Of a DNA stretch of 64,000 nt, positions 8,063 through 56,900 are shown one piece after another. Below the pieces are notes generated by a model, which was given only the letters and a program-made list of their open reading frames with translations, ran no database searches and had not been told where the DNA came from. The stretch comes from an uncultured Bdellovibrionales bacterium. GTDB taxonomy: Bacteria > Patescibacteriota > Minisyncoccia > Moranbacterales > UBA1568. The stretch spans positions 86,792-150,791 of the forward strand of contig CAYLJX010000001.1 in NCBI GenBank assembly GCA_964384235.1, in the 5' to 3' direction. Each line of letters opens with the position of its first letter. Position 1 is the first letter of the stretch. A program made the translations under genes and the position numbers.

Positions 8063-10150
8063 TTGCGACATATGACGCTCGAATACGTCCTGGCACTTTT
8101 CGTGCTGATGCTCATCTCGATGGGTGTGTTTTTCTTCGCCGGCCGCATCAAGGTGCCGTACACGGTGCTCCTGGTGCTCGTGGGATCGCTCCTGGTGCCG
8201 CTCTCTTCCGTGCCCGGTTTCCGTTTTCTCGGTGAGTTTCAGCTGACACCGGAGCTTCTCTTCTATATTTTCCTGCCCATCCTCATTTTCGAATCCGCCT
8301 ACAACATGCGGATACGGGAACTGCAGGAGAATATCCGTTCCGTCTCCTGGTTCGCGGTCGGCAGCCTCATCCTCTCGACGTTCTTCGTGGCGGGAGGGTT
8401 GTTCTTCGCTCTGCGGCTCATCGGTCTGGAGGTACCGTTCCTGGTGACGCTGCTCTTCGGGGCGCTCATTTCCGCGACCGATCCGGTAGCCGTTCTCGCA
8501 CTCTTCAAAGAGTTCGGGGTGCCGCGGCGGCTCTCGTTCATCTTCGAAGGAGAGAGTCTCTTCAACGACGGAACGTCACTAGCGGCCTTCCTCATCGTTC
8601 TGGAAGTCGTACTCAAGGGCTTCTCCGGAACGGGAACGGTTCTCGAGGGCGTTTTCATGTTTACGACGATGGTGGCGGGAGGCGTCGCGTTCGGTATCCT
8701 CATGGGGTTCCTCTTCGCGAAGCTCATCGAGAAGGCCGAGGGAAACGAGCATGTCGAGATCACGCTGACGCTTCTCGTCGCGCACCTGACATTCATCCTC
8801 TCCGAAGTGCTCTCGCACCATCTAGTGATCGCCGGTCAGGAGATCAAGTTCTCCTCCATCATCGCCACGGTCATGGCTTCCATGGTCATCGGCAATTACG
8901 GGCGTTCCAAACTGTCCGTCAAGACGGCGCACTTCATGGAGCGGTTCTGGGGGTACTTCGCCTTCGTGGCCAACTCCCTTGTCTTCATCACCATGGGACT
9001 CCTGTTCGCGAGCCTGCCGATCGATTTCGTGCCGTTCGTCGCGCCGATCCTGCTCGCGGTCTTCGTGGTGATGGTGGGCCGCGCCGTTTCCATCTATCCG
9101 GTCGCTGCCTGGCTCAACTTTTCCGGGAAGGAGAAGCGGATCCCGACCGCCTGGCAGCACCTCCTCGCCTGGGGGAGCCTGCGCGGGGCGCTCGCCGTCA
9201 CGATGGTGCTTCTCATTCCCGACGACCTGGTCCTGCCCGGCTGGCAGTATGACTTCACCATCAAGGAATTCATCACGGCGATCACCATCGGCTGCATCTA
9301 CTTCACGCTCTTCGTGAAGGCGACCACTATCGGGAGCATGATCAAACGCTACCGGTTGGACGCGCTGACGCCCACGGAACGGGCCGAGTATCACCAGAGC
9401 CGCACGTTCATCTTTTCGTACGCGCTGGAGAAGATCGGCGGTTTCCTCGAGAAGGGGTATGTGCCCGCCACGGTGCATGACCGGCTCGAGCGCGAGCTCA
9501 TGACGAAACGGGACGGGGAATATGCCGCCTGTGAAAAGATGCTCGGTCGGCGGTCGGAGGATTTCGAGCAGGCCCTGCGCATCTACGCGCTCGGCATCGA
9601 ACGCTACATCCTCAGGATGCTCTACCGTTTCGACGAGGTGAGCGAATCCGTCTACAAGAGGATCCTGACGAAGCTCGAGGTCCAGCAGGAACGGGTCGAG
9701 GAAGGCACTCCTCAGGTCCGGTCGCTCGATGAGCATTTCACGCCGGACTGGTTCGAACAGATGACCGGATTCGTCCGTTCCCGGTTGTTTCATCCGTCAG
9801 CGGAAGAATCCCTCAGGGAGCGATACATGTATTATCGGGCGCAGGAGATCATGGCCCGCAAGGCCGTCAAGGAATTAGGGAAGCTCAAGCACCGTTCCCG
9901 GCTGGAGTCGGAGATGTATTGCCGCGTGCTGGACGAGACGGTGGCCGCCTATCAGGCGTTTCATGATGACGCGCGGAAACGGACGGCGGAACTGGTCGCT
10001 GGAAACGGGACCGTCCTTCGGGAAATCGATCAGGAATTCGGACAGAGGAGCGTGAAGAAAGCGCTCGCGGAAGGACTGAACGAACTGACCCGCAAAGAAA
10101 TGCTTCCGTCCAAGCTTGCTGTCCTTTTGGAGGACGAGTTCGCGGGATAG
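8063..10150 (+). CDS. CPA1-family Na+/H+ (cation:proton) antiporter, NhaP-type, with a ~290-aa cytoplasmic C-terminal domain
   Basis: About 400 aa with 10-12 TM helices carrying antiporter motifs ('FEGESLFNDGTSLAAF', 'LSEVLSHHLVIAG'), then a charged soluble tail. Confidence 0.75.
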   Translation: MRHMTLEYVLALFVLMLISMGVFFFAGRIKVPYTVLLVLVGSLLVPLSSVPGFRFLGEFQLTPELLFYIFLPILIFESAYNMRIRELQENIRSVSWFAVGSLILSTFFVAGGLFFALRLIGLEVPFLVTLLFGALISATDPVAVLALFKEFGVPRRLSFIFEGESLFNDGTSLAAFLIVLEVVLKGFSGTGTVLEGVFMFTTMVAGGVAFGILMGFLFAKLIEKAEGNEHVEITLTLLVAHLTFILSEVLSHHLVIAGQEIKFSSIIATVMASMVIGNYGRSKLSVKTAHFMERFWGYFAFVANSLVFITMGLLFASLPIDFVPFVAPILLAVFVVMVGRAVSIYPVAAWLNFSGKEKRIPTAWQHLLAWGSLRGALAVTMVLLIPDDLVLPGWQYDFTIKEFITAITIGCIYFTLFVKATTIGSMIKRYRLDALTPTERAEYHQSRTFIFSYALEKIGGFLEKGYVPATVHDRLERELMTKRDGEYAACEKMLGRRSEDFEQALRIYALGIERYILRMLYRFDEVSESVYKRILTKLEVQQERVEEGTPQVRSLDEHFTPDWFEQMTGFVRSRLFHPSAEESLRERYMYYRAQEIMARKAVKELGKLKHRSRLESEMYCRVLDETVAAYQAFHDDARKRTAELVAGNGTVLREIDQEFGQRSVKKALAEGLNELTRKEMLPSKLAVLLEDEFAG

Positions 10151-10235
10151 GTATCCCTTTCGGGGTCGGACACGAATCTTGGCATCGGGCGTGATTTCCC
10201 GTATACTGTGAGGAGTCAGCGGTTAACGTTTCCTT

Positions 10236-10850
10236 ATGGAATTTTTCGGTATCGACCTGGTGGAGCTCATCAAGCTTGTCGGTCTCGTCGGGCTTTTCGC
10301 GATCGTGTTCGCGGAGACGGGGCTGTTCCTGGGATTTTTTCTCCCGGGAGACAGTCTGCTCTTCGTGGCAGGGTTTCTCGCGGCGGACGGATTCTTTTCA
10401 CTCCCGATTCTTCTTTTGGTGCTCTTCGTGGCGGCGGTGACGGGCAATCTGGTCGGGTACGAGTTCGGCCGGCGCGTGGGGGAGAAGCTCTTCAGCAAGG
10501 AGGATTCCCTTATCTTCAAGAAAGCGCACGCCGTGAAGGCACAGAACTTCTATGAAAAGCACGGTCCCAAGACCATCGTCTTGGCGCGTTTCATGCCGAT
10601 CGTCCGGACCTTCGCTCCGATCGTGGCCGGTGTCGCCAAGATGCGCTTCTCGGTCTTTTTCATGTACAACCTGATCGGAGCGCTGGCCTGGATCATTCTC
10701 TTGGTGCTTCTGGGGTACTCCCTCGGAAATGTCATCGATGTGGACAAGTATCTCCTGCCGATCGTTCTCCTCATCGTGTTCCTGTCTTTTCTCCCGGGGG
10801 TCGTGAGTTATGTCCGCGAGAAGCGCCGGGCAGCCGTTCCGACTGAATAG
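10236..10850 (+). CDS. DedA/SNARE-associated (VTT-domain) membrane protein
   Basis: 'FAETGLFLGFFLPGDSLLFVAGFLAA', 'GYEFGRRVGEKLFSKEDSLIF', 'KAQNFYEKHGPKTIVLARFMPIVRTFAPIVAGV' form the DedA core. Confidence 0.85.
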   Translation: MEFFGIDLVELIKLVGLVGLFAIVFAETGLFLGFFLPGDSLLFVAGFLAADGFFSLPILLLVLFVAAVTGNLVGYEFGRRVGEKLFSKEDSLIFKKAHAVKAQNFYEKHGPKTIVLARFMPIVRTFAPIVAGVAKMRFSVFFMYNLIGALAWIILLVLLGYSLGNVIDVDKYLLPIVLLIVFLSFLPGVVSYVREKRRAAVPTE

Positions 10851-10871
10851 GGACTGAGAATAGGGGATTTT

Positions 10872-10902
10872 TTGACAAAAAAGCCAAAAAGAGTAAGATA
10901 AT
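10872..10902 (+). promoter_or_regulatory. Candidate promoter for the complex-I-like operon (TTGACA ... GATAAT)
   Basis: 'tTTGACAaaaaagccaaaaagagtaaGATAATttt'. The spacer is 19 nt, so this is a weak call. Confidence 0.3.
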
Positions 10903-10968
10903 TTTGTTATAGCGAATATATCGCCAAGGAGGGGGCGGCGATTTTCTGTTGCCGAAATTCCCGGATAT

Positions 10969-11499
10969 ATGTATCAATTGCTCCGAAAAATCTTCGTGAC
11001 CCCCAAGTTAACGATTCCCAAGGAAGAACTGCTCCAGGAAGATGTGGCCGTGATAGGGGAGAAGCTCGAGGCTTCCGTCCGAAAGCTTTTCAAGGGATCG
11101 CTTGCCATCCGCGAGGTGGCGGCCGGATCGAGCAATGCCGAGGAACAGGAACTCACGGCGCTCACCAATCCGTACTATGATATCGAACGTTTCGGCGTCC
11201 ATTTTGTCGCGTCTCCACGGCATGCCGATATGCTCTTCGTCACCGGTCCGGTCTCACGCAACATGGGGGAGGCGCTTAAGCGCACCTATGAGGCGATGCC
11301 GACTCCGAAGTACGTGGTAGCGGTGGGGGACGGCGCCATTGATGCAGGAGTGTACCGTGATTCCTATGCTGTCTACAACAGCGTGGCGGACGTCATTCCG
11401 GTCGATTTCAAGATTCCTGGTGATCCTCCTTCTCCCAAGACGGTCATGGCATCCCTTTTGAAGATCCTGGAAACGATTGATTCCGAAAAAACTCCCTAG
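10969..11499 (+). CDS. NuoB / [NiFe]-hydrogenase-small-subunit-like protein in which all four Fe-S (N2 cluster) cysteine ligands are replaced
   Basis: 'HFVASPRHADMLFVTGPVSRNMGEALKRTYEAMPTPKYVVAVGDGAIDAGVYRDSYAVYNSVADVIPVDFKIPGDPP' aligns to NuoB 'QSDLMVVAGT...[24 protein letters not shown]...[22 protein letters not shown]'. The CC, GAC and GCP cysteines are A/G, D and D here. Confidence 0.7.
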   Translation: MYQLLRKIFVTPKLTIPKEELLQEDVAVIGEKLEASVRKLFKGSLAIREVAAGSSNAEEQELTALTNPYYDIERFGVHFVASPRHADMLFVTGPVSRNMGEALKRTYEAMPTPKYVVAVGDGAIDAGVYRDSYAVYNSVADVIPVDFKIPGDPPSPKTVMASLLKILETIDSEKTP

Positions 11500-11513
11500 C
11501 CTCCTTCCTGCAT

Positions 11514-13571
11514 ATGATGGAATTCCTGCTTTCTTCAACTAGTATCCTTTTTCTGATCAGTCTTTTCCTGATCGGCGGTTTCGGGGCGCTGTTTCTGGAG
11601 CGCTTTTTCGATGACGGCGGCCGGATAGGGGGGATCTTCGCTCATGCGTTCGCGACGGCCGGATCGCTCCTGGGACTCGGGATCGCTTCCTCGGCCCTTC
11701 TGTCCGGACAGGGCATCAGTCTGCAGTTGCCGAGCGTCTTTCCTCTCTTCTCGTTCGCGTTCCGTCTCGACGGGCTTTCGGCGTTTTTCCTGGCGGTCGT
11801 GTCGCTCGTCGCCTTCGCCGCTTCCCTGTACGGTCTCTCGTATCAGAAACATTTCCTGGGTCAGTATCGTCTGGGACGCCTCGGCTTTTTCTACAATATT
11901 TTCGTCGGGAGCCTGATGCTGGTCACGCTTGCCAATCAGGGGCTTTTCTTCCTCTTCGTCTGGGAGATCATGTCGCTCGCGTCGTATTTCCTCGTCGTCT
12001 TCGAACATAAGAAGGATGAGAATATCCGCGCCGGCTTCCTGTACTTCCTCATGACGCACTTCGGGACCGTGTTCATCACGCTTGCGTTCTTCCTCGCGTA
12101 CCAGGCCACCGGATCGTTCCACTTCGATGTCTGGCGCGAATCCTTCGGGACGCTCTCGCCGACGGTGCAGGGACTGATCTATCTCTTCGTGCTCATCGGT
12201 TTCGGGACCAAGGCCGGTATCGTGCCCTTGCATATCTGGCTGCCCGAGGCGCATCCGGCCGCACCGTCCCATGTCTCCGCGCTCATGTCCGGCGTCATGA
12301 TCAAGACCGCGATCTTCATGTTCGTGCGGTTTTTCTTCGATTTCTTCCCGGGAGCATCGTACCAGTGGGGACTCGTCTTTCTGGTGCTCGGCGCCGTCGC
12401 GTCGCTTCTCGGTGTCCTGTACGCGCTTTCGGAGCATGACCTCAAGCGGCTTTTGGCGTATCACAGCGTGGAGAACATCGGTATCATCCTCTTGGGGTTC
12501 GGTGCTGCCGTCACTTTCTTCAGTCTGGGGCTTGAGAGCTTCGCCCTCTTCGCGCTCGCCGCATCGCTCTACCACACGATGAACCATGCCATCTTCAAAG
12601 CACTGCTCTTTTTGGGAGCAGGGTCGGTAGTTTCGGCCACCGGGACGCGTAATATGGAGGAGTACGGCGGACTGATCAAGCTGTTGCCGTTCACGTCGTT
12701 CTTCTTTCTCATCGGGTCGCTCGCCATCTCGGCCTTCCCGCCGTTCAACGGTTTCGCGAGCGAGTGGCTGACATTCCAGGCGCTCTTTGTCGGTATCGGA
12801 TCGGCCAGCATCCTGGTGAAGGCCGTTTTCATCGTCGCTATCGCGAGTCTCGCCTTTACTGGGGGGCTGGCGGCCGCCTGTTTCGTCAAGGCGTTCGGAG
12901 CGACATTCCTGGCCAAAGCGAGGAGTGCGGAGGTATCGCATGCGCATGAGGCAGCCCTTCCGATGCTCTTCGCGATGGGAGTGCTCGCGCTCCTGACGCT
13001 CGTTCTCGGCGTGTTCGCGACGTATGTGATCGCGGCCCTGGTCGCGGTCGTCGCGAGTATCGGACTCATCCAGCCGCAGACGCTCCAGTTCCCGTTCCTT
13101 GAGATCGTCTCGGCCCGGGACAACTTCGCTGACATCCTGCCGTTGGACCGGGTCGGATTCGCGCTGCTTCTCCTGCTGGTCCTCTCGATCGCCGTCGTCT
13201 CGTATCTGACGCGCCGCCGAAAAACCATCATCGGCAAGACGTGGGATTGTGGATATCCTCTCAATCCGCGTATGGAGATCACTGCGACGAGTTTCTCACG
13301 CTCGCTCATCACCATTTTCAAAGGCATCCTCAAGCCGACGAAACAGCATGATGTCGAGTACCATGACGAGAGCATGCGCTATTTCACCAAGGCAGAAGGC
13401 GTGACCCTCGGTTTCACGGACCTCTATCGCAAAGTCCTCTATCGTCCGCTGCACCGTATACTGCTTTTTTCCGCGACGCAGGCGAGACGGATCCAGGGAG
13501 GCAACATCAATGTCTATATCCTCTACGTGTTCGTCACCCTGATCGCGCTCCTTATCTGGTCCGCCCGCTAA
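11514..13571 (+). CDS. NuoL/MrpA/HyfB-like antiporter-type membrane subunit
   Basis: 685 aa, polytopic. 'FFLFVWEIMSLASYFLVVFEH', 'GIVPLHIWLPEAHPAAPSHVSALMSGVMIKTAIF', 'LLAYHSVENIGIILLGFG' are complex-I antiporter-like subunit motifs. Confidence 0.8.
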   Translation: MMEFLLSSTSILFLISLFLIGGFGALFLERFFDDGGRIGGIFAHAFATAGSLLGLGIASSALLSGQGISLQLPSVFPLFSFAFRLDGLSAFFLAVVSLVAFAASLYGLSYQKHFLGQYRLGRLGFFYNIFVGSLMLVTLANQGLFFLFVWEIMSLASYFLVVFEHKKDENIRAGFLYFLMTHFGTVFITLAFFLAYQATGSFHFDVWRESFGTLSPTVQGLIYLFVLIGFGTKAGIVPLHIWLPEAHPAAPSHVSALMSGVMIKTAIFMFVRFFFDFFPGASYQWGLVFLVLGAVASLLGVLYALSEHDLKRLLAYHSVENIGIILLGFGAAVTFFSLGLESFALFALAASLYHTMNHAIFKALLFLGAGSVVSATGTRNMEEYGGLIKLLPFTSFFFLIGSLAISAFPPFNGFASEWLTFQALFVGIGSASILVKAVFIVAIASLAFTGGLAAACFVKAFGATFLAKARSAEVSHAHEAALPMLFAMGVLALLTLVLGVFATYVIAALVAVVASIGLIQPQTLQFPFLEIVSARDNFADILPLDRVGFALLLLLVLSIAVVSYLTRRRKTIIGKTWDCGYPLNPRMEITATSFSRSLITIFKGILKPTKQHDVEYHDESMRYFTKAEGVTLGFTDLYRKVLYRPLHRILLFSATQARRIQGGNINVYILYVFVTLIALLIWSAR

Positions 13572-13586
13572 TTTTCCCGCATCCGT

Positions 13587-14558
13587 ATGAGTATCCTCAT
13601 CTTTCTCCTCCAACTGATCGTCGTGCCGGTTCTCTCACCGCTCTCTATCGGCATCGTCCGCAAGCTGAAGGCCCGGATGCAGAACCGCGTCGGCGCGAGC
13701 GTGTTCCAGCCGTACCGGGACCTGTGGAAACTCTTCCACAAAGACGAAGTCATCTCGGAGGATGCCTCCTGGATCTTCCGTTTTTCGCCGTATCTCATCT
13801 TCGCGGTCGTGCTCCTCATCGGGGCGGGGGTGCCCGTCGTGACGGCGCTCACCCCGTCGATCATCGCCGGGGACGGGGCTTCGGAATGGCTCTCGCTCCT
13901 TTCGGCGGGTGATTTTCTCGTCATCGTGTACCTCTTGGCGCTCGCGACATTCTTCCTGGCGCTTGGTGGGATGGAGACAGGGAGCGGTTTCGGAGGATTC
14001 GGCTCCAGCCGTGAGATGACCATGGCGGCGCTGACCGAGGGAGGACTCCTGTTCTCGCTCCTTTCCGTGTCCGTCGTCGCCCAGACGGGCAATGTCATGA
14101 CGATGGTGGAGAATCTCCAGCTCATGCCGTTTCAGGCCTTCCTGCCGCTTATCGTGGCGTTCTTCGCGTTCTACATCGCGCTCCTTTCCGAAAACGGTCG
14201 CTTCCCGGTGGACAACCCGGCGACCCATCTCGAGCTCACCATGATCCATGAGGCGATGATCCTTGAGTATTCCGGCAAGCGTCTCGCTCTTTTGGAGTGG
14301 GCGAGCTGGAGCAAGTTCCTCATCTTCGTCGTTCTGGGTGTCAACCTGTTCTTTCCGTGGGGGGTGGCGACGAGTCTGGAACCGAAAGTACTGCTTCTTT
14401 CAACGGTTTTCTTTGTGCTCAAGACCCTCGTGCTTTTGGGAAGCGTCGCGTTTCTCGAATCGACCATGGCGAAATTCCGCATTTTCCGCGTTCCGGATCT
14501 CCTGTTCACCTCGTTCGTTCTCGGTGTCATCGCCCTTGGCATCATCATAACCTTTTAG
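13587..14558 (+). CDS. NuoH/HycD/HyfC-like membrane subunit
   Basis: 'RKLKARMQNRVGASVFQPYRDLWKLFHKDEV' resembles the NuoH/HycD N-terminal 'RKxxARxQxRxGP...QPxADxxKLxxKE' motif; about 8 TM helices. Confidence 0.75.
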   Translation: MSILIFLLQLIVVPVLSPLSIGIVRKLKARMQNRVGASVFQPYRDLWKLFHKDEVISEDASWIFRFSPYLIFAVVLLIGAGVPVVTALTPSIIAGDGASEWLSLLSAGDFLVIVYLLALATFFLALGGMETGSGFGGFGSSREMTMAALTEGGLLFSLLSVSVVAQTGNVMTMVENLQLMPFQAFLPLIVAFFAFYIALLSENGRFPVDNPATHLELTMIHEAMILEYSGKRLALLEWASWSKFLIFVVLGVNLFFPWGVATSLEPKVLLLSTVFFVLKTLVLLGSVAFLESTMAKFRIFRVPDLLFTSFVLGVIALGIIITF

Positions 14559-14561
14559 TTT

Positions 14562-15218
14562 ATGGAATTTTCCGCTGAACTTTTCTTCTTTCTCGACCTG
14601 CTCGCGTTTCTCGCGGCGATCTTCATGCACCTCGTGAAGAAGAATGCCAACCTGATCCGGCTCTACGTGGCGCAGTCCCTTGCCGTTTCCGTGCTGCTCC
14701 TGGTCATCGGACTGAGCGAGGGGGAACAGAGTCTCATTTGGATCGCGGTGCTCACGTTCGCCATCAAGAGTGTCGCGGCCCCGGCCTTCTTTTTCCGCCT
14801 CATGCGGCGCTTCGGATCGCAGTTCACCGCGAGCAACTACCTCAATACCCCGCTCACGCTCCTCGTCTTGGCGGCCCTCATTATTCTTGCGTATTCCCGC
14901 GTCTTCCTGCCGCTCGGCACGCTCGTTCCGCAGGCGGTCGGGTATCTTTCTCTCACCCTCTCGATCGTCTTCGTATCGATATTCCTCATGATCAATCGCC
15001 GCGGGGCGTTCGCCCAGATGGTCGGCATCCTGTCACTCGAGAACGGTATCGTACTCCTGGCGGCCCTCATCGGTATACAGCAGCCGCTTGCCCTGGAAAT
15101 CGGCATCATCTTCGACATCGTCATCTGGATGGTCATCGCCAACGTGTTCATCGCCATGATCTATCGCCAGTTCGGTTCGCTCAACATCACCGAGCTTAAA
15201 CGTCTCACGGAAGATTAA
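14562..15218 (+). CDS. HyfE/NuoK-NuoJ-like small membrane subunit
   Basis: 218 aa, about 6 TM helices. Its size and operon position match hydrogenase-4 component E / Mrp-like small subunits. No catalytic motif. Confidence 0.55.
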   Translation: MEFSAELFFFLDLLAFLAAIFMHLVKKNANLIRLYVAQSLAVSVLLLVIGLSEGEQSLIWIAVLTFAIKSVAAPAFFFRLMRRFGSQFTASNYLNTPLTLLVLAALIILAYSRVFLPLGTLVPQAVGYLSLTLSIVFVSIFLMINRRGAFAQMVGILSLENGIVLLAALIGIQQPLALEIGIIFDIVIWMVIANVFIAMIYRQFGSLNITELKRLTED

Positions 15219-15223
15219 ACCCT

Positions 15224-16678
15224 ATGCAGCTCACGTTTCTCATCGCTTTGCCGCTTCTCGTCGTCTGTTTCATCGCGCTCCTGCAGGCGAGGCACGTCCG
15301 TTTCATCGAGGCGGCGGTCGTTCTCTCGGCCTTCGTCGAGTTCGGTCTCGCACTAGTGCTTCTCCCGTCGGTCCTCGCGAACGGGGCGGTGGCAGCCACC
15401 TCTTTCTTTTCGCTGGATGCCTTCGGGGCGTTCCTGTCGCTCATCATCGCGCTCGTCGGATTGTTTGTCAGTCTCTACTCCGTCGGGTACCTGCGGGCGG
15501 AAGTGACCAAGGGGATCATCGGTCTGCGGCGCGTCCGCCAGTACTATCTCCTCCTGGAGCTCTTCCTCTTCGCGATGATGCTCGCGGTCGCGACCATCAA
15601 TCCGGTCGTCATGTGGATCGCCATCGAGGCCACGACGCTCTCCACGGCGTTCCTCATCAGCTTCTACAACAAGCCTTCCGCGACGGAAGCGGCGTGGAAG
15701 TACCTCATCCTCAACTCCCTGGGACTGCTCCTCTCCCTCCTCGGAACGCTCATGTTCCTCGCCCTGCCGGAACTGAAAAGCGGCTCGCTCACCTGGGAGA
15801 ACCTGCGTGCCGCGGCGGGTGATTTCCATCCGCTCGCGGTCAAGGTCGCCTTCGTGTTCATCCTGGTCGGGTACGGGACCAAGGCCGGCCTGGTGCCGTT
15901 CCATACCTGGAAGCCGGATACCTATTCCAAGGCGCCGGCCCCGGTCGTCGCGCTGCTTTCCGGTGTCCTTCTCAACGTGGCGTTTTTCGCGATCATGCGT
16001 TTCAAGGGCGTGACGGATGCGGCGCTCCAGTCCGAATTCGCTGGGGGACTTCTCATCTTCTTCGGAACGCTGTCCGTGGCGCTCGCCGCACTCATCATTT
16101 TCATCCAGAAGAACTACAAGCGGCTCCTCGCCTATTCCAGCATCGAACATGCGGGACTCATCGCGCTCGGCTTCGGCTTCGGCGGTATCGGGACGTTCGC
16201 GGCCCTGCTCCACATGTTGTACCACTCGCTCACCAAGGCACTCCTCTTTTTCGGATCAGGAAACATCTTCCTCAAGTACAGCTCCACCAAGATGAAGAAC
16301 GTGACGGGCGTTCTCCAGGTATTGCCGGCGACGACGGTGCTGTTTTTTGCCGGGTTCATCGCGATCGCCGGACTGCCGCCTTTCGGAATATTCGTGTCCA
16401 AGATGCTCCTGCTTTCGGCTGGTATGGGCGAGCATCCGGTCCTGGTGGGTTTCATCCTGCTTTCCCTGGCGGTCGTCTTCTTCGGTTTCTTCCGGCATCT
16501 CACCGCGCTCCTCTTCGGTGAGCCGGCCCCGGGCATCGAGAAGGGGGAGATGCACATACTGACGCTCTTCCCGGTCTTTCTTCTGGCCGGACTGATCATC
16601 GTCTTGAGTTTCCACTTCCCTGCGGAACTGGAGCTGCTTATCGAGTCCGCGGCGGATAGTCTCTCGATCAAACCCTAA
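15224..16678 (+). CDS. NuoN/NuoM/HyfF-like antiporter-type membrane subunit
   Basis: 'GLVPFHTWKPDTYSKAPAPVVALLSGVLLNVAFFAIMRF', 'LLAYSSIEHAGLIALGFG'. Confidence 0.8.
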   Translation: MQLTFLIALPLLVVCFIALLQARHVRFIEAAVVLSAFVEFGLALVLLPSVLANGAVAATSFFSLDAFGAFLSLIIALVGLFVSLYSVGYLRAEVTKGIIGLRRVRQYYLLLELFLFAMMLAVATINPVVMWIAIEATTLSTAFLISFYNKPSATEAAWKYLILNSLGLLLSLLGTLMFLALPELKSGSLTWENLRAAAGDFHPLAVKVAFVFILVGYGTKAGLVPFHTWKPDTYSKAPAPVVALLSGVLLNVAFFAIMRFKGVTDAALQSEFAGGLLIFFGTLSVALAALIIFIQKNYKRLLAYSSIEHAGLIALGFGFGGIGTFAALLHMLYHSLTKALLFFGSGNIFLKYSSTKMKNVTGVLQVLPATTVLFFAGFIAIAGLPPFGIFVSKMLLLSAGMGEHPVLVGFILLSLAVVFFGFFRHLTALLFGEPAPGIEKGEMHILTLFPVFLLAGLIIVLSFHFPAELELLIESAADSLSIKP

Positions 16679-16683
16679 CGGCC

Positions 16684-18279
16684 ATGCCTATGTCTGAAAT
16701 GACGAACACTTCATTGGAACGCTACGGTCTGGGACGGCACCTCTCCGTTCGGAAAGGAAATCTCTCCCTGTTCGACGTGTCGGCGGAGGATCTGCCGGAA
16801 ACGGTGCAGACGCTCATGCACGAGCACAACCTCCCGCTCAAGACCGTCGTAGCGACCGACGAACGCAAAGAGGGAGGAGTCTTCCGTATCCGGTATGTCT
16901 TCGGTCTCCCCAAGCAGGACGGGTTTCTCGTCCCGGTCCTGTCCGTCGATCCGTACGTGCAGAGCTTTCCGTCGCTGGTCTCCGTCGATCAGGAGTTCGC
17001 CGTCTATGAACAGGAGATACAGACCTTCTTCGGACTGGAACCCCTGGGGCATCCGCGTCCCGGTCGCATCCTGCTCCACGGGGAAAACTTTCCTGCGGAC
17101 TGCCATCCGCTTCGGAAGGACTTCGCTTGGAATACGAATGTCGAGGCACCGAAAGAAAAAATCCTTCCGACATTCAGGAAGTTCGAGGGTGAGGGAGTGT
17201 ATGAGATTCCTGTCGGACCGGTCCATGCCGGGATCATCGAGCCGGGACATTTCCGTTTCAGCGTCTTGGGTGAGGAAATCCTCCGTCTCGAGCCGCGTTT
17301 GGGCTACGTGCACAAGGGGACCGAGAAACTATTTGAGACGCTGCCTCTAGATCAGAAGCTCCGGCTTTCGGAGCGTGTTTCCGGTGACAGTTCCTTCCAT
17401 CACGCGCTCGCTTTCGCCCAGGCGATCGAGACGCTTGCGGGAGTCGCGGTGCCGGATCGGGCCAGATTCCTGCGGACGGTGTACGCCGAACTCGAGCGCC
17501 TCGCCAATCATTTCAATGATCTTGCCTTCATCATGCTCGATACCGGTTTCAGCTTCGGTGGCAGTCAGGGGACGCGCCTGCGGGAACGGGTGATGCGGTG
17601 GAACGAGAGGCTGACCGGGAGCCGGTTCCTGCGAGGAGTGGTCGCTTTCGGCGGCGTGACGAAGGATCTCGATGAAAAAATGATCGATGAGCTGCAGGAC
17701 GATCTCGAACTTTTGGAAAAGGATTTCCAGGAAGTGATCGATGCGACCAAGGAGACCGACTCGCTCCTTAACCGACTCAAAGGGACGGGAACGCTCTCAT
17801 CCCAGGTGGCCCGGGATCACGGGGCGGTGGGTATCGCCGCGCGGGCCGTCGGCGAAGAAACGGACGCCCGGGCCGACTATCCCTATGCCGCCTACGAAGA
17901 GGTTCAGTTCAGTGTCCCGACGGAAGAGAGCGGGGACGTCTATGCCAGATATCGGGTGCGTATCCGTGAGGTACACCAGTCCTTCCGTATCCTCAATCAG
18001 GCGCTTACGCTTCTCACTCACCAGCCGGCACCGATCGTCTCGGGATTGCCCAAATTCCCTGCGTCCTCCATGGCGCTCGGGGTCGTCGAGGGATGGCGTG
18101 GAGATATCGTGTATTTTGTGGCGACGGACGCCGAAGGCAACATCTCGCGTGTCAAAGTGCGCGACCCCTCCTTCCTCAACTGGCAGCTTTTCCCGTACGT
18201 CGTGACCAATGACATGGTGCCGGACTTCCCTTTGATCAACAAGAGTTTTAACCTCTCCTATACCGGAAACGACCTCTAG
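16684..18279 (+). CDS. Fused NuoC-NuoD-like / hydrogenase-large-subunit-like protein without NiFe-binding cysteines
   Basis: The N-terminal third is NuoC-like. Then 'VGPVHAGIIEPGHFRFSVLGEEILRLEPRLGYVHKGTEKLFE' resembles NuoD 'GPQHPAAHGVLRL...HRGTEKL'. Positions that hold RxCGxC and DPCxxC in [NiFe] hydrogenases read 'LGYVHKGTEK' and 'DPSFLNWQ'. Confidence 0.75.
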   Translation: MPMSEMTNTSLERYGLGRHLSVRKGNLSLFDVSAEDLPETVQTLMHEHNLPLKTVVATDERKEGGVFRIRYVFGLPKQDGFLVPVLSVDPYVQSFPSLVSVDQEFAVYEQEIQTFFGLEPLGHPRPGRILLHGENFPADCHPLRKDFAWNTNVEAPKEKILPTFRKFEGEGVYEIPVGPVHAGIIEPGHFRFSVLGEEILRLEPRLGYVHKGTEKLFETLPLDQKLRLSERVSGDSSFHHALAFAQAIETLAGVAVPDRARFLRTVYAELERLANHFNDLAFIMLDTGFSFGGSQGTRLRERVMRWNERLTGSRFLRGVVAFGGVTKDLDEKMIDELQDDLELLEKDFQEVIDATKETDSLLNRLKGTGTLSSQVARDHGAVGIAARAVGEETDARADYPYAAYEEVQFSVPTEESGDVYARYRVRIREVHQSFRILNQALTLLTHQPAPIVSGLPKFPASSMALGVVEGWRGDIVYFVATDAEGNISRVKVRDPSFLNWQLFPYVVTNDMVPDFPLINKSFNLSYTGNDL

Positions 18280-18412: not shown

Positions 18413-19372
18413 CTAGATATTGATTCCGAAGAAGGAGCGGAGAATATATCCGAAAAGCGATGAGATGCCGACGGCGATAACGATGGTCGCGATGTTGATG
18501 AGGATGCGTTTGCGGGTCTTCATGCCGGAGAGAAAGGCGAGAACGGCGGAAACGACTACGATCGCGAGACCGGCAAAGAGGATCGACAGGAGCGGATCAG
18601 TGGCGCCCAGGAAGACGGGAAGGATCGGAAAGGCAGCCCCGATGAAGTAACTTATCCCGACGATGAGAGCGGTGGAAAGGGGATTTTCGACGGTTTCGCT
18701 GCTCCCGTTTTCGGTTCCCAGGAAGCGTGCTTTGCCACGTTCGAGCGAGCGTACTTCGTTCTCGGAGTTGGAGGCGGCAAAGGCTCCGGCTCCCATGGAG
18801 ATGGCGCCCGCGACCGCGACCGTGAGACCGGCGATCAGGACCGAGGGGGCGTGCTGAAAGGCGGCAAAGAAACCGCTCACCGCGCCAAGGATCTCGACGA
18901 GACCGTCGTTGAATCCCAGGAAGACGCTTCGTACCCGCTCGGGACTGATGTTCTTGCTGGTGTAGCGGCTGACGATCTCGTCTTCGTGGCCGAACTCGTC
19001 TTGGAGGACGTCCCGGACCTTGGATTCGAAGGGTGTGCCCTTGGTCTGTTTCCAAAGGACGAGATATTTCCTGATCCCGTACACCTCGATGGCTTCGAGC
19101 GTGAGGTGGATGCCGGCTTCCCCGAAGATGCGGCAGACGACCAGGAGGACGGACATCTTGATCTTTTGCTTCCAGGTCAAGGTTTTGAGTTTCAGGTCGA
19201 AGTAGTCCTGCCAGAAAGCCAGATGCCGCGTTTCCACGGTCACGAGCGAATCGAGCATCGTTTTTGTGTCCCCCGTGGCGATGAGGGAGAGTTTCTGGTA
19301 GAGCGTCAGGTCGAACAGTTCGTCAAGGACGAGCTGTCGCGCCAGTTTGTGGTCATAATCCGGAGTATCCAT
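18413..19372 (-). CDS. VIT1/CCC1-family Fe/Mn transporter with an N-terminal ferritin/rubrerythrin-like domain
   Basis: From 'MDTPDYDHKLARQLVLDELFDLTLYQKL...' (ferritin-like helices), then 'GFNDGLVEILGAVSGF...' and a glycine-rich TM C-terminal half typical of VIT1. Confidence 0.7.
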   Translation of the reverse strand: MDTPDYDHKLARQLVLDELFDLTLYQKLSLIATGDTKTMLDSLVTVETRHLAFWQDYFDLKLKTLTWKQKIKMSVLLVVCRIFGEAGIHLTLEAIEVYGIRKYLVLWKQTKGTPFESKVRDVLQDEFGHEDEIVSRYTSKNISPERVRSVFLGFNDGLVEILGAVSGFFAAFQHAPSVLIAGLTVAVAGAISMGAGAFAASNSENEVRSLERGKARFLGTENGSSETVENPLSTALIVGISYFIGAAFPILPVFLGATDPLLSILFAGLAIVVVSAVLAFLSGMKTRKRILINIATIVIAVGISSLFGYILRSFFGINI

Positions 19373-19443
19373 AGACAATAAAGAAAAAAGCGGTATCTCC
19401 AGTATACCACTTTCTCCCGGGTTGCCGAGATATTGGGGGGTTG

Positions 19444-20247
19444 TCACATCCAGCGAGTGATGACGAAGACGTAGGCGGCGACGAGGACCCAGAATGACCA
19501 GAGGAAGAAACGTCGGCCCCTGTTCCGCAGGACCTCGTCCTGCATGACTTCCTTGGTGGTGATGCCGAAGCTCTTGAAGATGAAGGTGGATTCGAAGAGA
19601 CGGACGATGACGACCCAGGCGAGGAACATGCCGACATATAATCCGAGTCCCGGTATGTTCGGGCGGGCGAGCTCCGGGGTGGGATTGCCGCCGCCGACTT
19701 TCAGCCACTTCATCCACCCGGCCCACTTCATGTTAAAGACATGGATGATCGTGAGGAGAACGACGAGACGGAGTCCCCAGCGCTGCATGAACCACCAACG
19801 CTTGGCACCGAGAAGCGCTATAGCCTTTTTGAACGAAATGAGGAAGAGAAAGACGAGAAGCGCGATGCCGACGAGTCCCGCGGCGAACTCGAGCGAAGCG
19901 AGTGATACTTTGGAGTGGGGGAACTTGAGCGGGAGGAAGAAGTACGAGACGATCACATGGCCGAGGAGGACGAACGTGGCGACGATGCCGATCTCCTTGC
20001 GAAGGCCGAGCCAGTTGTCGAAGCGATCGAAATAGCGCGCGATCGGCCCGATGAGGAAGACGAGGGAGAGCATCACCGTCCCGGTGCCAGCCAGGGCCTT
20101 GTTGGGGACGTAGAGCACGTCGGCGGTCGGTGGCGCGTCGAAGAAGTAGCCACGCCGGAACAGGAGGTAGAGACTGAAAAACCCGAAAAGGGCGGCCGCG
20201 ATGAGGATCGCGATGAGATAGTCCCGCAGACTCGACGGCTTATGCAT
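19444..20247 (-). CDS. Polytopic membrane protein, possibly with a ferric-reductase-like/MsrQ-like haem-binding TM domain
   Basis: Six or seven TM helices with conserved His in the helices ('LLGHVIVSYFF', 'TIIHVFNMKW'). Lies immediately upstream of the VIT1 gene. The family call is tentative. Confidence 0.35.
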   Translation of the reverse strand: MHKPSSLRDYLIAILIAAALFGFFSLYLLFRRGYFFDAPPTADVLYVPNKALAGTGTVMLSLVFLIGPIARYFDRFDNWLGLRKEIGIVATFVLLGHVIVSYFFLPLKFPHSKVSLASLEFAAGLVGIALLVFLFLISFKKAIALLGAKRWWFMQRWGLRLVVLLTIIHVFNMKWAGWMKWLKVGGGNPTPELARPNIPGLGLYVGMFLAWVVIVRLFESTFIFKSFGITTKEVMQDEVLRNRGRRFFLWSFWVLVAAYVFVITRWM

Positions 20248-22423: not shown

Positions 22424-22439
22424 GGCTGGAATTTGTCTG

Positions 22440-22511
22440 CTGGGGAGGTAGGGATCGAACCTACGTATGGAGGCTTCAAAGGCCCCTGCCTTACCACTTG
22501 GCTACTCCCCA
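22440..22511 (-). tRNA. tRNA-Gln (anticodon UUG)
   Basis: Reverse complement 'TGGGGAGTAGCCAAGTGGTAAGGCAGGGGCCTTTGAAGCCTCCATACGTAGGTTCGATCCCTACCTCCCCAG' folds as a 72-nt cloverleaf. Parts: 7-bp acceptor stem, 3-bp D stem GCC/GGC, anticodon loop CTTTGAA, T-loop TTCGATC. It is close to E. coli tRNA-Gln. CCA is not encoded. Confidence 0.85.
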
Positions 22512-27178: not shown

Positions 27179-28474
27179 ATGTTCTCAGGTCTCCTGGACA
27201 TTTTTGCGAAGATGGGAACGATTCTCTCGGCCGTACTGGATGTCTGGTTTCTCATCTTTCCTCCCTTGCTGTATTTTCTTTTCAAGACGCTCTGGATGCA
27301 GTACGTCTGGGGCAAGTATGCCTCGACCCTCAAGTGGGTGATGCTCGAGATCATCCCGCCGCGCGACATAGAGAAGGGGCCGCTCCCGATGGAGTCGATT
27401 TTCGCGGGGCTCGCCGGTGTCGTCAAGAGTTCCAATACCGCCGAAGAGATGATCAAGGGTGAGTTCCCGACATCCTTCAGTCTCGAGATCGTGAGCATGG
27501 AGGGGAAGGTGCGGTTCTTCGTCCGGACGCAGTCCGGTTTCCGCAACCTGGTGGAGGCGCAGTTCTACGCCCACTATCCCGACATCGAGATCGTCGAGGT
27601 ACCGGATTACGTCTTCGATGTTCCCAAGACCGTTCCCAACAAGGAGTGGGACCTTTGGGGCGCGGACCTCGTACTGGTCAAGGATGACCTCTATCCCATC
27701 CGGACGTACAAATATTTCGAGGAATCGGTCACCGGCAAGATGGTCGATCCGCTCGCGAGCGTCCTCGAGACCATGGGCAAGGCCGGCCCGGGTCAGTTCA
27801 TGTGGCTGCAGATGATCACTACGCCCTTCAGTGAGAAGTGGTACAAGACCGGCCAGGTGACCGTCGACGAGTTTCTCGGCAAGGTCAAGGAGAAGCCGGT
27901 CGGTGTCCTCACGCGCCTCCTGCAGGAAATCTGGGATATCATCGGGAATATCGGAAAAGGCATCATGGGCAAGGAAATCGAGTTCACGGCCGGGGCGACC
28001 GCGGAGAAGAAAGAGGAGCAGCCGGTGGAATTCCGTCTCACGCCGGGCGAGAAAGACGTCCTCAAGGCCCTCCAGTCCAATCTTGCCAAGCAGCAGTTCC
28101 GGATGCGCATGCGCTACGTCTATGTGGCCCGCCGCGACGTGTTCAGCAAGCCGTTCGGTGTCTCCGGTTTCTTCGGCGCGCTCAAGCAGTTCAACGACCA
28201 GAACCTCAACAGCTTCAAACCCGAGGACGGCTCCAAGACGGATGCCAAGTATCTCTGGGTCGAAGAGCGCATGCGGTACCGCCAGCGTCGTATCTTCCGT
28301 CGGTACATCACCCGCGACACCGATCCGCAGAGTACCCGCTTTCTCCTGAGTTCGGAGGAGCTCGCCACGATCTTTCATATGCCGGATATGTCGGTGGTCG
28401 CTCCGACCATGGCCCGTGTCATGGCCAAGCGTGGCGGAGCGCCTGCCAATCTCCCGGTTCAAGACTTTGAGTAG
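27179..28474 (+). CDS. Hypothetical membrane-anchored protein (2 N-terminal TM helices plus a large soluble domain), partner of the downstream ATPase
   Basis: 431 aa; hydrophobic segments 'ILSAVLDVWFLIFPPLLYFLF'. No family recognised. A short gap of ~40 nt separates it from the next gene. Confidence 0.5.
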   Translation: MFSGLLDIFAKMGTILSAVLDVWFLIFPPLLYFLFKTLWMQYVWGKYASTLKWVMLEIIPPRDIEKGPLPMESIFAGLAGVVKSSNTAEEMIKGEFPTSFSLEIVSMEGKVRFFVRTQSGFRNLVEAQFYAHYPDIEIVEVPDYVFDVPKTVPNKEWDLWGADLVLVKDDLYPIRTYKYFEESVTGKMVDPLASVLETMGKAGPGQFMWLQMITTPFSEKWYKTGQVTVDEFLGKVKEKPVGVLTRLLQEIWDIIGNIGKGIMGKEIEFTAGATAEKKEEQPVEFRLTPGEKDVLKALQSNLAKQQFRMRMRYVYVARRDVFSKPFGVSGFFGALKQFNDQNLNSFKPEDGSKTDAKYLWVEERMRYRQRRIFRRYITRDTDPQSTRFLLSSEELATIFHMPDMSVVAPTMARVMAKRGGAPANLPVQDFE

Positions 28475-28514: not shown

Positions 28515-30542
28515 ATGACTACCCAGTCCGATATCACATTTTTCGCCAAGACGAACTTCCGCAATCAGGAGCGGACGTTCGGTATCAAGACCGACGACCG
28601 ACGACGTCATATGTACGTCATCGGCAAGACCGGCATGGGCAAGACCAACCTCCTGGAGAACCTGGCCATCCAGGATATACAGAAGGGACACGGCATCGCC
28701 TTCATCGATCCGCACGGTGACACCGCGGAAAAGCTCATACGGGCGATTCCCGCGAGCCGCATCAACGACGTCATCTATTTCAATCCGGCCGACCAGGACT
28801 TTCCGATCGCCTTCAACGTGATGGAGAAGGTGAGTCCCGAGTACCGCCACCTGGTCGCTTCGGGTCTCGTCGGTGTCTTCAAGAAGCTCTGGGCTGACTC
28901 GTGGGGTCCGCGGCTCGAATACATTCTCCGAAACGCCATCATCGCGCTCCTCGAATACCCGGGTTCGACCCTTCTCGGCGTGACACGCATCCTCGTCGAT
29001 AAGTCCTACCGTGACCGCGTCGTGGAAAAGATCTCCGATCCGGTGGTGCGCTCCTTCTGGGTGGACGAGTTTTCCAAGTGGGACCCGCGCGTCCTTCAGG
29101 AAGTCATCTCGCCGATCCAGAACAAGGTCGGTCAGTTCCTCTCGAGCGCTCTCATCCGCAACATCGTCGGTCAGACGGTGTCGTCCTTCGACGTGCGCAC
29201 GATCATGGACGAGCGCAAGATCCTCATCATGAACCTCTCCAAGGGCCGCATCGGTGAGGACAACAGCGCACTCCTTGGCGCCATGATGATCACCAAGATC
29301 CAGCTCGCAGCCATGGGGCGTGTCGATATGCCGGAGGAGGAACGCAAGGACTTTTACCTCTATGTCGACGAGTTCCAGAACTTCGCGACGGAATCCTTCG
29401 CCAATATCCTCTCCGAGGCCCGCAAGTACCGCCTCAACCTCGTGCTCGCCAACCAGTACATCACGCAGATCGACGAGAAAGTGCGCGATGCCATCTTTGG
29501 AAACGCCGGGACACTCGTATCGTTCCGCGTGGGCGCCATGGACGCCGAAGCGCTCGAGAAGGAGTTCGAGCCGGTCTTCATGATGAACGATATCGTCAAT
29601 CTGCCGAAGTATCAGATCTACCTCAAGCTCATGATCGACGGTATCGCGGGGGACGCCTTCAGTGCGACGACTTTGCCGCCCATCGCGCTCCAGGATGGGG
29701 GTAACGAGGAAAAGATCATCCGGATTTCCCGCGAGCGCTATGCGACATCCAAGGCGGATGTGGAAGAAAAGATCCGCCGCTGGAGCGGCATGCTCACGCC
29801 GGAGGAAAAAGCGGCGCTCATCGAGACGGTGCAGAGTCCTCGTCCGAGACAGGAGGCACCCAGAAGGATGTCCGAAGAAAGTTTCCGGTCACCTCGTCCC
29901 GAGAGGAAAAACGCACCGCAGACTCCGATGACTCCTCGACCTCAGGCTGCTCCGAAGACCGTGCCGGTCGAAAAGCCTCAGGCGGAAGAGCGTGTCGAAA
30001 CAGGTACCCCGAAAGTTCAGCCGGAAGAACCGGCTCGTCCTGAACCAATTGAAGAAAAAACCGTTTCTCAGGAGACCGAGGAAAGAGTCGAAGAGATTTC
30101 CGGACAGGAGACTCATACGCGACCGCTCCCGGAAGAAGGGAAGCAGGAAGAACGACCGATGTACGCGGCGGTCTGCGCTTCCTGCGGGACCGAGATCGAG
30201 GTGCCGTTCAGGCCCGATGGCAAGCGCCCGACCTTCTGCAAGGACTGCCTGCGGGATTACCAGCGCGCCACTGCCAAGGTTCGTCGCGAGGTCGAAACCA
30301 AGCAGGCACCGGTCTCGCAACCTTCTGTCCAGCGATCATCACAACCGACCGATGTTCCTCCTCGTCCCCGCAAACAGGTGGTGAGGAGTACCTACGTGTC
30401 CGATCAGTCTCCCATCTCGCTTTCCCAGGTACAGCACATCGAGCCCAAGAAATTCAAAGCGCTCAAGAAGCGCCCCAGTGTCAATCTTGACGAGATTCGC
30501 GCGCTCCTCGACGATGCGAAGAAGAAGAACGATGCCGAATGA
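28515..30542 (+). CDS. VirD4/TraD/TrwB-like (type IV coupling protein) or HerA/FtsK-fold P-loop ATPase with a C-terminal CxxC...CxxC zinc ribbon
   Basis: Walker A 'VIGKTGMGKTN', 'IAFIDPHGD', 'IYFNP', 'LYVDEFQNFA', 'EARKYRLNLVLANQYITQID', 'GNAGTLVSFRVG'. Then a long linker and 'CASCGTEIEVPFRPDGKRPTFCKDC'. Confidence 0.65.
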   Translation: MTTQSDITFFAKTNFRNQERTFGIKTDDRRRHMYVIGKTGMGKTNLLENLAIQDIQKGHGIAFIDPHGDTAEKLIRAIPASRINDVIYFNPADQDFPIAFNVMEKVSPEYRHLVASGLVGVFKKLWADSWGPRLEYILRNAIIALLEYPGSTLLGVTRILVDKSYRDRVVEKISDPVVRSFWVDEFSKWDPRVLQEVISPIQNKVGQFLSSALIRNIVGQTVSSFDVRTIMDERKILIMNLSKGRIGEDNSALLGAMMITKIQLAAMGRVDMPEEERKDFYLYVDEFQNFATESFANILSEARKYRLNLVLANQYITQIDEKVRDAIFGNAGTLVSFRVGAMDAEALEKEFEPVFMMNDIVNLPKYQIYLKLMIDGIAGDAFSATTLPPIALQDGGNEEKIIRISRERYATSKADVEEKIRRWSGMLTPEEKAALIETVQSPRPRQEAPRRMSEESFRSPRPERKNAPQTPMTPRPQAAPKTVPVEKPQAEERVETGTPKVQPEEPARPEPIEEKTVSQETEERVEEISGQETHTRPLPEEGKQEERPMYAAVCASCGTEIEVPFRPDGKRPTFCKDCLRDYQRATAKVRREVETKQAPVSQPSVQRSSQPTDVPPRPRKQVVRSTYVSDQSPISLSQVQHIEPKKFKALKKRPSVNLDEIRALLDDAKKKNDAE

Positions 30543-41144: not shown

Positions 41145-41151
41145 CAAGAAT

Positions 41152-56862: not shown

Positions 56863-56900
56863 CCGGGAGTCCTTATGCGAGGGCTCCCGTTTTCTTTTTA
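56863..56900 (+). terminator. Rho-independent terminator
   Basis: 'cgggagtccttatgcgagggctcccg' followed by 'ttttcttttt'. Confidence 0.6.

Follow-up and report, generated by a model that had tools for sequence, protein, structure and literature searches.

What can a complex built of respiratory and hydrogenase-type subunits do when no cysteine remains to carry electrons through it? The question is raised by a stretch of 64,000 nucleotides (hereafter the window, or the 64-kb window) of contig CAYLJX010000001.1, from an uncultured bacterium of the Moranbacterales. At positions 10969-18279 of its forward strand lie six co-directional open reading frames (ORFs), separated by gaps of 14, 15, 3, 5 and 5 nt, which by Pfam and NCBIfam assignment encode, in this order, a NuoB-like, a HyfB/NuoL-like, a NuoH/HycD-like, a HyfE-like and a HyfF/NuoN-like protein and a NuoC-NuoD fusion. 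This is the list and order of subunits given in a first-pass annotation of the same DNA, made from the letters alone. The operon is an Ehr (energy-converting hydrogenase-related) complex, of a sub-family that has lost the iron-sulphur (Fe-S) cluster of the small subunit as well as the NiFe site of the large one. Based on sequence and synteny it would be a redox-independent ion translocator, most likely a secondary H+/cation antiporter or ion-gradient converter, a reading to which we assign a probability of roughly 55%.

Loss of the cofactor sites

The first gene (ehrS-like; 10969-11499, + strand) encodes the NuoB/HycG/MbhJ-type small subunit of 176 residues (Pfam PF01058, Oxidored_q6; E 7.9e-24). 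In alignments to MbhJ (6cfw_J; E 6e-25) and HycG (7z0s_G), which pass through well-conserved motifs flanking the ligand positions, the four [4Fe-4S] ligands are replaced by S55, E58, G122 and D152, and the subunit contains no cysteine at all. An AlphaFold2 model (pLDDT, the predicted confidence score, of 77.9; 41-sequence alignment) matches NuoB/PSST chains and MbhJ (template-modelling score of 0.80 normalised to 6cfw_J, root mean square deviation of 3.8 Å), and the fold has therefore been kept. The sole poorly defined internal stretch of the model, residues 57-63, is the loop that normally wraps the cluster.

The last gene (ehrL-like; 16684-18279, + strand) encodes the NuoC-NuoD/HycE-type fused large subunit of 531 residues (Pfam PF00329, Complex1_30kDa, and PF00346, Complex1_49kDa), which aligns over its full length to HycE (7z0s_E; E 1.9e-69). 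In public gene calls it starts at 16690, the second methionine, six bases downstream; an exact public match was found for this 529-residue form (P0001; 100% identical) and not for the 531-residue one. Relative to HycE, the N-terminal CxxC pair of the NiFe site falls on S233 and S236 (RVSGDSSFHH) and the C-terminal pair, at the extreme C-terminus, on S525 and G528 (NLSYTGNDL), and neither the L1 (RxCGxCxxxH) nor the L2 (DPCxxCxxH/R) motif of the group 4 [NiFe]-hydrogenases is present. The only cysteine, C140, is within the NuoC part. The quinone ligands His38 and Tyr87 of Nqo4 fall on I185 and G234 in an ungapped HMMER alignment to 2fug_4. Summed over all six proteins there are four cysteines in 2417 residues, and no cysteine-ligated electron path can exist in the complex. 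The first-pass annotation had claimed both losses, of the four N2-cluster cysteines from the NuoB-like subunit and of both NiFe CxxC pairs from the large one, while allowing that its alignment might be wrong; the alignments to the MbhJ, HycG and HycE structures confirm the substitutions and reveal no misalignment.

It had also reported that the NuoI/HycF ferredoxin subunit and the NuoEFG input module were missing, which is correct for the operon and the 64-kb window. Pfam scans of essentially all ORFs in the window detected no NuoI/HycF, NuoE/F/G or hyp genes, the remainder being housekeeping, cell-envelope and protease genes, and the ferredoxin motif CxxCxxCxxxCP was found in no window ORF of at least 50 residues. 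The IspH/LytB protein encoded at 41122-42102 (+) retains its three [4Fe-4S] cysteine ligands (GFCAG, ATCPLV and ICYATT), so the organism still assembles Fe-S clusters.

An Fe-S-less sub-family of Ehr complexes

The Ehr gene set was named in Geobacter sulfurreducens (EhrA/B/C/D/L/S; PMC7894505), and PMC6349859 credits Marreiros et al (2013) with generalising Ehr complexes. The G. sulfurreducens complex (EhrA-1/A-2/B/C/D/L/S, GSU0739-0745) shares with the window operon its six subunit types and the NuoC-NuoD fused large subunit (PMC7894505). A scan of one genome per prokaryotic species recovered 80 related loci at 36-62% identity, all 80 of them with an A-B-C-D-L core and all the complete ones with the full six-subunit set. 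Nearly all of their large subunits show the same replacement of the NiFe cysteines as in the window, S-x-x-S/T/E ... S-x-x-G together with Asp235; seven are true hydrogenases with all four cysteines, CCCC, in the large subunit (L045, L047, L058, L065, L069, L076 and L077). The window locus is nested among the Ehr loci in a neighbour-joining tree, which is a distance tree only. In gene set, in loss of the NiFe cysteines and in the grouping of its large subunit the operon is thus an Ehr complex, and neither the six-subunit architecture nor the loss of the NiFe site is new. The earlier idea that this architecture could represent a new functional class is not upheld, since gene set and NiFe loss are what define Ehr (PMC7894505, PMC6349859, PMC7304191). 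The one Ehr trait missing from the window is a small subunit with proximal [4Fe-4S] ligands, a trait that comes from the present sample and not from the original definition.

Sequences from the candidate phyla radiation (CPR) were shown by Jaffe et al (2020, BMC Biol) to form a monophyletic clade inside the Ehr large subunits, without the metal-binding cysteines, and it was concluded that they "likely cannot interact with H2" (PMC7304191). The sub-family of the window is almost certainly this clade. The main text of that paper concerns the large subunit only and is silent on the small-subunit Fe-S ligands, the pump residues and the ATP synthase or antiporter context (PMC7304191). In the literature searched, which did not cover Marreiros et al (2013) or Coppi (2005), where priority is possible, no mention was found of a small subunit that has lost its cluster and ferredoxin domain, of the pattern of conservation or of the link to ATP synthase and exchanger genes. 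Beyond that literature, the new element is the loss of the small-subunit cluster, which separates this sub-family from canonical Ehr.

In canonical Ehr the small subunit has all four ligand cysteines (CCCC), as seen in about 63 loci spanning Nitrospira, Acidobacteria, Verrucomicrobia, Rokubacteria, Firmicutes, Thaumarchaeota and others. Fused to the small subunit, Pfam often detects an N-terminal 2x[4Fe-4S] Fer4 domain as well (it is present in L011, L023, L062 and L077); the same NuoB-NuoI fusion is described in Supplementary Note 4 of PMC6349859. The window has the canonical large subunit, with no NiFe cysteines and with S-x-x-S/T ... S-x-x-G and D235. It differs from canonical Ehr in the small subunit, which has neither the four [4Fe-4S] cysteines nor the NuoI-like Fer4 domain, and in gene order, the small-subunit gene being first here and last there. 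In the window and in 11 related loci no more than one of the four small-subunit cysteines is left, there is no ferredoxin domain and the small-subunit gene comes first. These relatives include L001, L003 (Daviesbacteria), L010 (Saccharibacteria), L053 (Magasanikbacteria) and L050, L070 and L080 (Patescibacteria or unnamed) and, by record title, L004 (Firestonebacteria), L006 (Thermoleophilia) and L009 (Endomicrobiales).

The loss is not confined to a few genomes. The ligands are absent from all of the 120 nearest small-subunit clusters at 90% identity, 108 of which have S, E, G and D at the four positions (SEGD) and 101 no cysteine at all; among the nearest representatives at 50% identity at least three ligands are absent in about 25 of 150. 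A metagenome scan added 70 Fe-S-less loci (DCDD in 25, TCDD in 18, SEGD in seven, DCDN in six, and others), with the order S-A-B-C-D-L wherever the contig allows. The large subunit has hundreds of public homologues at 55-74% identity, of which the named ones belong to Candidatus Moranbacteria, Moraniibacteriota and Patescibacteria, and homologues of the small subunit have the same distribution. This places the window in a CPR bacterium of the Moranbacteria type.

In the tree built from the concatenated A, B, D and L subunits (69 taxa, 1975 columns, 200 bootstraps; neighbour-joining, not maximum likelihood), the Fe-S-less loci are monophyletic (181/200) and divide into two sub-clades, each with 200/200. 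Their sister group has CCCC in the small subunit and the small-subunit gene last. Given this sister group and the monophyly of the clade, the loss of the cluster is derived and essentially single. The distribution check proposed by the first-pass annotation thus recovered the operon in related genomes as one Fe-S-less clade. One locus with PCCC at the ligand positions (L016) was not accepted as a case of cluster loss; it groups with the canonical loci, with which it was counted, and the missing cysteine is probably noise of ORF start or alignment.

Fe-S-less operons also occur in metagenome-assembled genomes (MAGs) titled as non-CPR (L004, L006, L009 and the Fibrobacteria L007), which suggests lateral transfer of the variant. 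The operon of L004 is flanked by genes for an NrfA-type cytochrome c552 and for acetyl-CoA synthase/carbon monoxide dehydrogenase, so that at least this genome is genuinely non-CPR and its title not a matter of mis-binning. The Fibrobacteria locus has two tandem operons on the same strand, one of the Fe-S-less type with its small-subunit gene cut by the end of the contig and the other more divergent. Tandem same-strand Ehr operons, both of them canonical, are also found in the Nitrospirota (L044:4772-19841 and L074:1-14015).

A separate case of partial cluster loss is found in a Chloroflexota MAG (L077:8606-12286) and in P0166, where a NiFe-type large subunit with four cysteines accompanies a small subunit with E, E and D at three of the proximal-cluster positions. 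This small subunit still has a cysteine two residues after the third ligand position, together with an intact N-terminal Fer4 domain. The proximal cluster of a hydrogenase would here have degraded, which suggests at least one further independent loss.

Conservation of the pump, channel and former active site

The two antiporter-like subunits are encoded by the second gene (ehrA-like; 11514-13571, + strand), with a HyfB/HycC/NuoL-type product of 685 residues (Proton_antipo_M; NCBIfam NF005086, hydrogenase-4 subunit B, E 8e-199; best PDB match HycC, 7z0s_C, E 3e-72), and by the fifth (ehrD-like; 15224-16678, + strand), with a HyfF/NuoN-type product of 484 residues (Proton_antipo_M; NCBIfam NF005044, hydrogenase-4 subunit F, E 8e-128). 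Both keep the glutamate of transmembrane helix (TM) 5, the lysine of TM7, the histidine of TM11 and the lysine of TM12, and subunit A also the lysine of TM8. In subunit A, E151, K233, H240, K264, H354 and K362 are conserved across the family, and in subunit D, E135, K220, H227, H334 and K338 are invariant; the TM8 position of subunit D is N251, as in most canonical Ehr. These residues are invariant in the Fe-S-less clade, bar one substitution at the TM8 lysine of subunit A, and nearly invariant in canonical Ehr.

The third gene (ehrB-like; 13587-14558, + strand) encodes the NuoH/HycD/MbhM-type subunit of 323 residues (Pfam PF00146, NADHdh, E 1.3e-42; HycD, 7z0s_D, E 9.8e-42), in which E143, E151, E202, D209, E222, E227, E291 and R298 are invariant or nearly so. 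The fourth (ehrC-like; 14562-15218, + strand) encodes a HyfE-like small membrane subunit of 218 residues, which aligns with the hydrogenase-4 membrane subunit model NF008556 (E 1.7e-18; 11-215/216 aligned) with a score under the curated cut-off. The Pfam scan gave no match for this product, and its orthologues give weak matches to PF00420 (NuoK).

Positions conserved in at least 90% of the Fe-S-less clade were compared with those conserved in at least 80% of canonical Ehr. The two groups share 97 conserved positions in the large subunit and 53 in the NuoH-like subunit, and neither subunit shows a clade-specific switch; the small subunit has a single consistent one, from cysteine to Asp152. Residues of the former active site of the large subunit are conserved as well (H181, E186, H189, R191, H210, S233, D235 and H240). 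The nearest relatives available as DNA are at 66-74% protein identity, where synonymous sites are saturated, and constraint was therefore measured as identity per subunit and not as the ratio of nonsynonymous to synonymous substitution rates. Across the clade identity is highest for the small subunit (54-69%), followed by A, B, D and L (36-63%) and C (27-56%). Around the former cluster ligands the segments AGSSNAEEQEL, VGDGAID and IPGDPPSP are almost invariant among the small subunits of Moranbacteria type. By every sequence criterion applied, the complex still appears to be a working machine.

Comparison with related complexes

The best sequence matches for every subunit are from E. coli hydrogenase-4 and the formate hydrogenlyase (Hyf; 7Z0S), the group 4f [NiFe]-hydrogenases (HyfB, HycD, HyfE, HyfF, HycE and HycG). 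In contrast to these, the window operon has no NiFe site, no proximal cluster and no HycF/HyfH, HycB/HyfA or HyfD. Subunits S, L, B and A are homologous to MbhJ, MbhL, MbhM and MbhH of the membrane-bound hydrogenase of Pyrococcus furiosus (6CFW), whose NiFe site, three clusters (in MbhJ and MbhN) and separate Mrp-like Na+ module are all absent here. With complex I (NDH-1) the operon shares homologues of NuoB, C, D, H, L and N and a NuoK-like subunit, whereas the N2 cluster is missing and I185 and G234 replace the quinone ligands; NuoA, I, J, M, E, F and G were found neither in the operon nor in the window. The closest functional analogy would be the Mrp antiporters (6Z16, 7QRU), which are free of redox chemistry and consist of NuoL/M/N-type subunits with the same chain of lysines and glutamates. 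The residues expected of MrpA- and MrpD-type subunits are present (E151, K233, K264 and K362 in A; E135, K220 and K338 in D). Mrp, on the other hand, has no homologues of NuoH, NuoB or NuoCD, and the operon, which has no further ORFs and no such Pfam or NCBIfam matches, has no MrpB, MrpE, MrpF or MrpG.

Association with ATP synthase and exchanger genes

Unbiased clustering was applied to every ORF lying up to 3.5 kb from 80-odd Fe-S-less operons, and the most frequent neighbour families were the ATP synthase epsilon (11 loci), beta (11) and gamma (8) subunits, DedA (7) and the CPA1 exchanger (5). In Patescibacteria other than Moranbacteria and in unnamed lineages (L002, L053, L070, L087, L089, L093, L102, L107, L108, L109, L127 and L130) the ATP synthase beta and epsilon genes are followed immediately, on the same strand, by the operon; it lies between atpD and atpC in opposite orientation in L003 and L146 and adjoins the atp genes on the opposite strand in L092. 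The atp genes thus adjoin 15 of 72 Fe-S-less loci and none of 64 canonical ones (Fisher p = 3.8e-5, indicative only, the loci not being phylogenetically independent), and at the roughly 64 canonical loci none was found within 10 kb. Where the neighbours of the sub-family are ATP synthase, Na+/H+ exchanger and DedA genes, those of canonical Ehr are formate dehydrogenase-type partners.

Sodium-type c-subunits of ATP synthase have a glutamine in helix 1 and a Glu-Ser/Thr pair. The c-subunits encoded next to the operon in L102 and L130 have no glutamine in helix 1 and Glu-Ala in place of Glu-Ser/Thr, and look H+-type. A scheme in which a Na+ ATPase would be coupled to a Na+/H+ converter finds no support in these subunits.

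In the window the operon is preceded by genes for a CPA1-type Na+/H+ exchanger of 695 residues (8063-10150, + strand; Pfam PF00999, E 2.3e-51) and a DedA/VTT-domain membrane protein of 204 residues (10236-10850, + strand; Pfam PF09335, E 1.1e-20), upstream neighbours for which membership of the complex is not implied. The order exchanger, DedA, operon is found in the species of the window and in the Moranbacteria relatives L084, L086, L136 and L150, and is present in the complete 1.22-Mb genome CP064975.1; one relative keeps DedA alone upstream, and DedA is directly upstream of the operon in seven loci. The synteny check called for by the first-pass annotation therefore gave the exchanger-DedA-operon order in Moranbacteria and adjacency to atp genes elsewhere. 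The exchanger, the VIT1-family gene described below and the other flanking genes are not conserved beside the operon beyond Moranbacteria, so the linkage to the exchanger is lineage-specific, and general conservation of the flanks of the window was rejected.

Proposed function and alternatives

With the pump residues intact, no cysteine-ligated electron path and exchanger or ATP synthase genes as neighbours, the non-redox, conformationally coupled ion translocator envisaged in the first-pass annotation would seem to be the best fit. We propose that an ancestral Ehr without a NiFe site gave rise to a sub-family that also lost the NuoB-like [4Fe-4S] cluster and the fused ferredoxin-like domain, and in which the small-subunit gene moved to the front of the operon. 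The complex would move ions without redox chemistry by means of its two antiporter-like subunits and the NuoH-like channel, and may serve membrane energisation and pH or ion homeostasis in a fermentative cell. Its partners would be an ATP-driven, H+-type F1Fo ATPase and, in Moranbacteria, also the CPA1 Na+/H+ exchanger. The stub formed by NuoB and NuoCD is probably kept because it gates or caps the NuoH-like channel, the former cluster site being predicted to have become a conserved carboxylate-rich pocket (AGSSNAEEQEL / VGDGAID / IPGDPP).

Several observations weigh against this proposal. The linkage to ATP synthase is seen in only about 20% of loci, which are not phylogenetically independent, and in more distant relatives the operon has unrelated flanks. 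Moreover, an Mrp antiporter needs no NuoB/NuoCD/NuoH module, yet it is this module that is most constrained here. The old active site could therefore be the place of ligand binding, of gating or of a non-redox chemical step, a serious rival to, or refinement of, the proposed function.

By analogy with the hydration of CO2 that ion gradients drive in DAB complexes or in the CupA-bearing cyanobacterial NDH-1, the pocket of the former active site, where the large, small and NuoH-like subunits join, might bind or catalyse something non-redox, such as a hydration, a decarboxylation or a protonation-linked reaction, coupled to ion translocation in either direction. The eight conserved residues of the former active site and the 97 large-subunit positions held equally in Fe-S-less and canonical Ehr are consistent with this, as is the small subunit, the most conserved of the six and with a nearly invariant polar and acidic pocket, and the constraint exceeds what would be expected for a passive cap. 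The suggestion is nevertheless drawn from analogy alone; linked to the operon there is neither a catalytic domain nor a cofactor site nor a candidate substrate gene, and its neighbours are ion-transport and ATP synthase genes and not metabolic enzymes. We consider it unlikely, if well worth bearing in mind.

The position of the operon right after atpD-atpC in 12 loci, and between the two genes in L003 and L146, could instead mean that the complex assists or regulates the F1Fo ATP synthase or the membrane potential, for instance as a gated proton leak, as a sensor or as a partner in assembly or stabilisation, and is not a stoichiometric antiporter. As most Fe-S-less loci, the window included, are away from atp genes, and as two fully conserved antiporter-like pump modules favour real ion transport, this appears improbable.

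Still less probable is that the complex remains an oxidoreductase, with a cofactor held by aspartate, glutamate, serine or histidine or with an unlinked partner that feeds electrons to the large subunit. Canonical Ehr is assumed to be redox-coupled in PMC6349859, the replacement residues include metal-friendly carboxylates (D or E at two to three of the four positions) and the search for a partner covered the 64-kb window. Within that window, however, there is no ferredoxin-type ORF, the small subunit has no cysteine and the large one only C140, and the quinone ligands of Nqo4 are replaced. The residues at the ligand positions also differ among lineages (SEGD, DCDD, TCDD, DADN and DVDD), unlike a fixed metal site. 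Finally, we know of no precedent for a cubane cluster with no or one cysteine ligand.

A decaying relic without function, as the loss of all cofactors and the split genes of some relatives (the D gene of L084, the A gene of L086 and many genes of L087) might suggest, is hardly credible when the ORFs are intact in hundreds of lineages at 55-87% identity, the functional residues are invariant, the small subunit is the best conserved and the splits of L087 also hit the atp genes, so are likely sequencing or assembly errors.

The favoured translocator could be taken further. It is a tentative thought that nature has made, in the Fe-S-less clade, a complex-I-like machine free of redox chemistry, whose NuoB/NuoCD/NuoH coupling module is under strong selection with no electron input and which works with the F1Fo ATPase as an ion translocator of a new type. 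Because the large and NuoH-like subunits show no clade-specific switch upon loss of the cluster, ion translocation may also be the core job of Ehr in general, with the Fe-S clusters of canonical Ehr a dispensable regulatory or structural add-on.

The genes of the operon are commonly annotated as subunits of NADH-quinone oxidoreductase or Ni,Fe-hydrogenase III, and nuo genes of CPR genomes, such as nuoHN, have been counted as electron transport chain (PMC11608272). For the Fe-S-less sub-family a redox annotation would be wrong and would inflate the respiratory and hydrogen metabolism inferred for Patescibacteria. In the fermentative, ultra-small CPR cells a conserved complex that translocates ions, and that is often encoded in the atp operon, would be a candidate component of membrane energisation. 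Since it is cofactor-free but has the whole complex-I coupling junction and two pump modules, it would also offer a system for probing what the junction does beyond redox chemistry, and it bears on what Ehr complexes do in general.

Other features of the locus and window

A promoter-like sequence, TTGACA-16 nt-TAAGAT (10872-10899, + strand), lies about 70 nt upstream of the first gene. Found by a consensus scan with 10 of 12 matches, it is a consensus match alone and no evidence of function. On the + strand the AT skew is strongly negative over the operon (-0.20 to -0.29 across 10001-16000), consistent with hydrophobic membrane proteins being encoded by T-rich codons.

In some public assemblies genes of the operon are broken up into several ORFs, at L084:8548-9995 (D gene), L086:5648-6904 (A gene) and L087:143-9996 (many genes). 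As the adjacent atp genes are also split in L087, these look like assembly indel errors and not pseudogenes.

Convergent with the end of the operon is a VIT1-family (Fe/Mn transporter) gene at 18413-19726 (-), of 319 residues in public calls and 437 in its longest ORF, which overlaps the next gene, and this is followed by a multi-pass membrane protein of 267 residues with no Pfam match (19444-20247, -). The arrangement of these two is kept in the same species only (L081-L083). A tRNA-Gln gene (22439-22511) is the only RNA gene in the window, which has no rRNA. Four large ORFs of 383-605 residues match no Pfam family at E <= 1e-5 (45913-47730, -; 59984-61399, +; 56873-58024, -; 27179-28474, +), the orthologue of the last being listed with DUF8128 in related loci. 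A gene for a 23S rRNA intervening-sequence protein (PF05635; 52722-53117, +) is found among glycosyltransferase and sugar epimerase genes, and a VirD4/TraG-type coupling-protein homologue (TrwB_AAD_bind, TraG-D_C) encoded at 28515-30542 (+) ends in a C-terminal treble-clef zinc finger.

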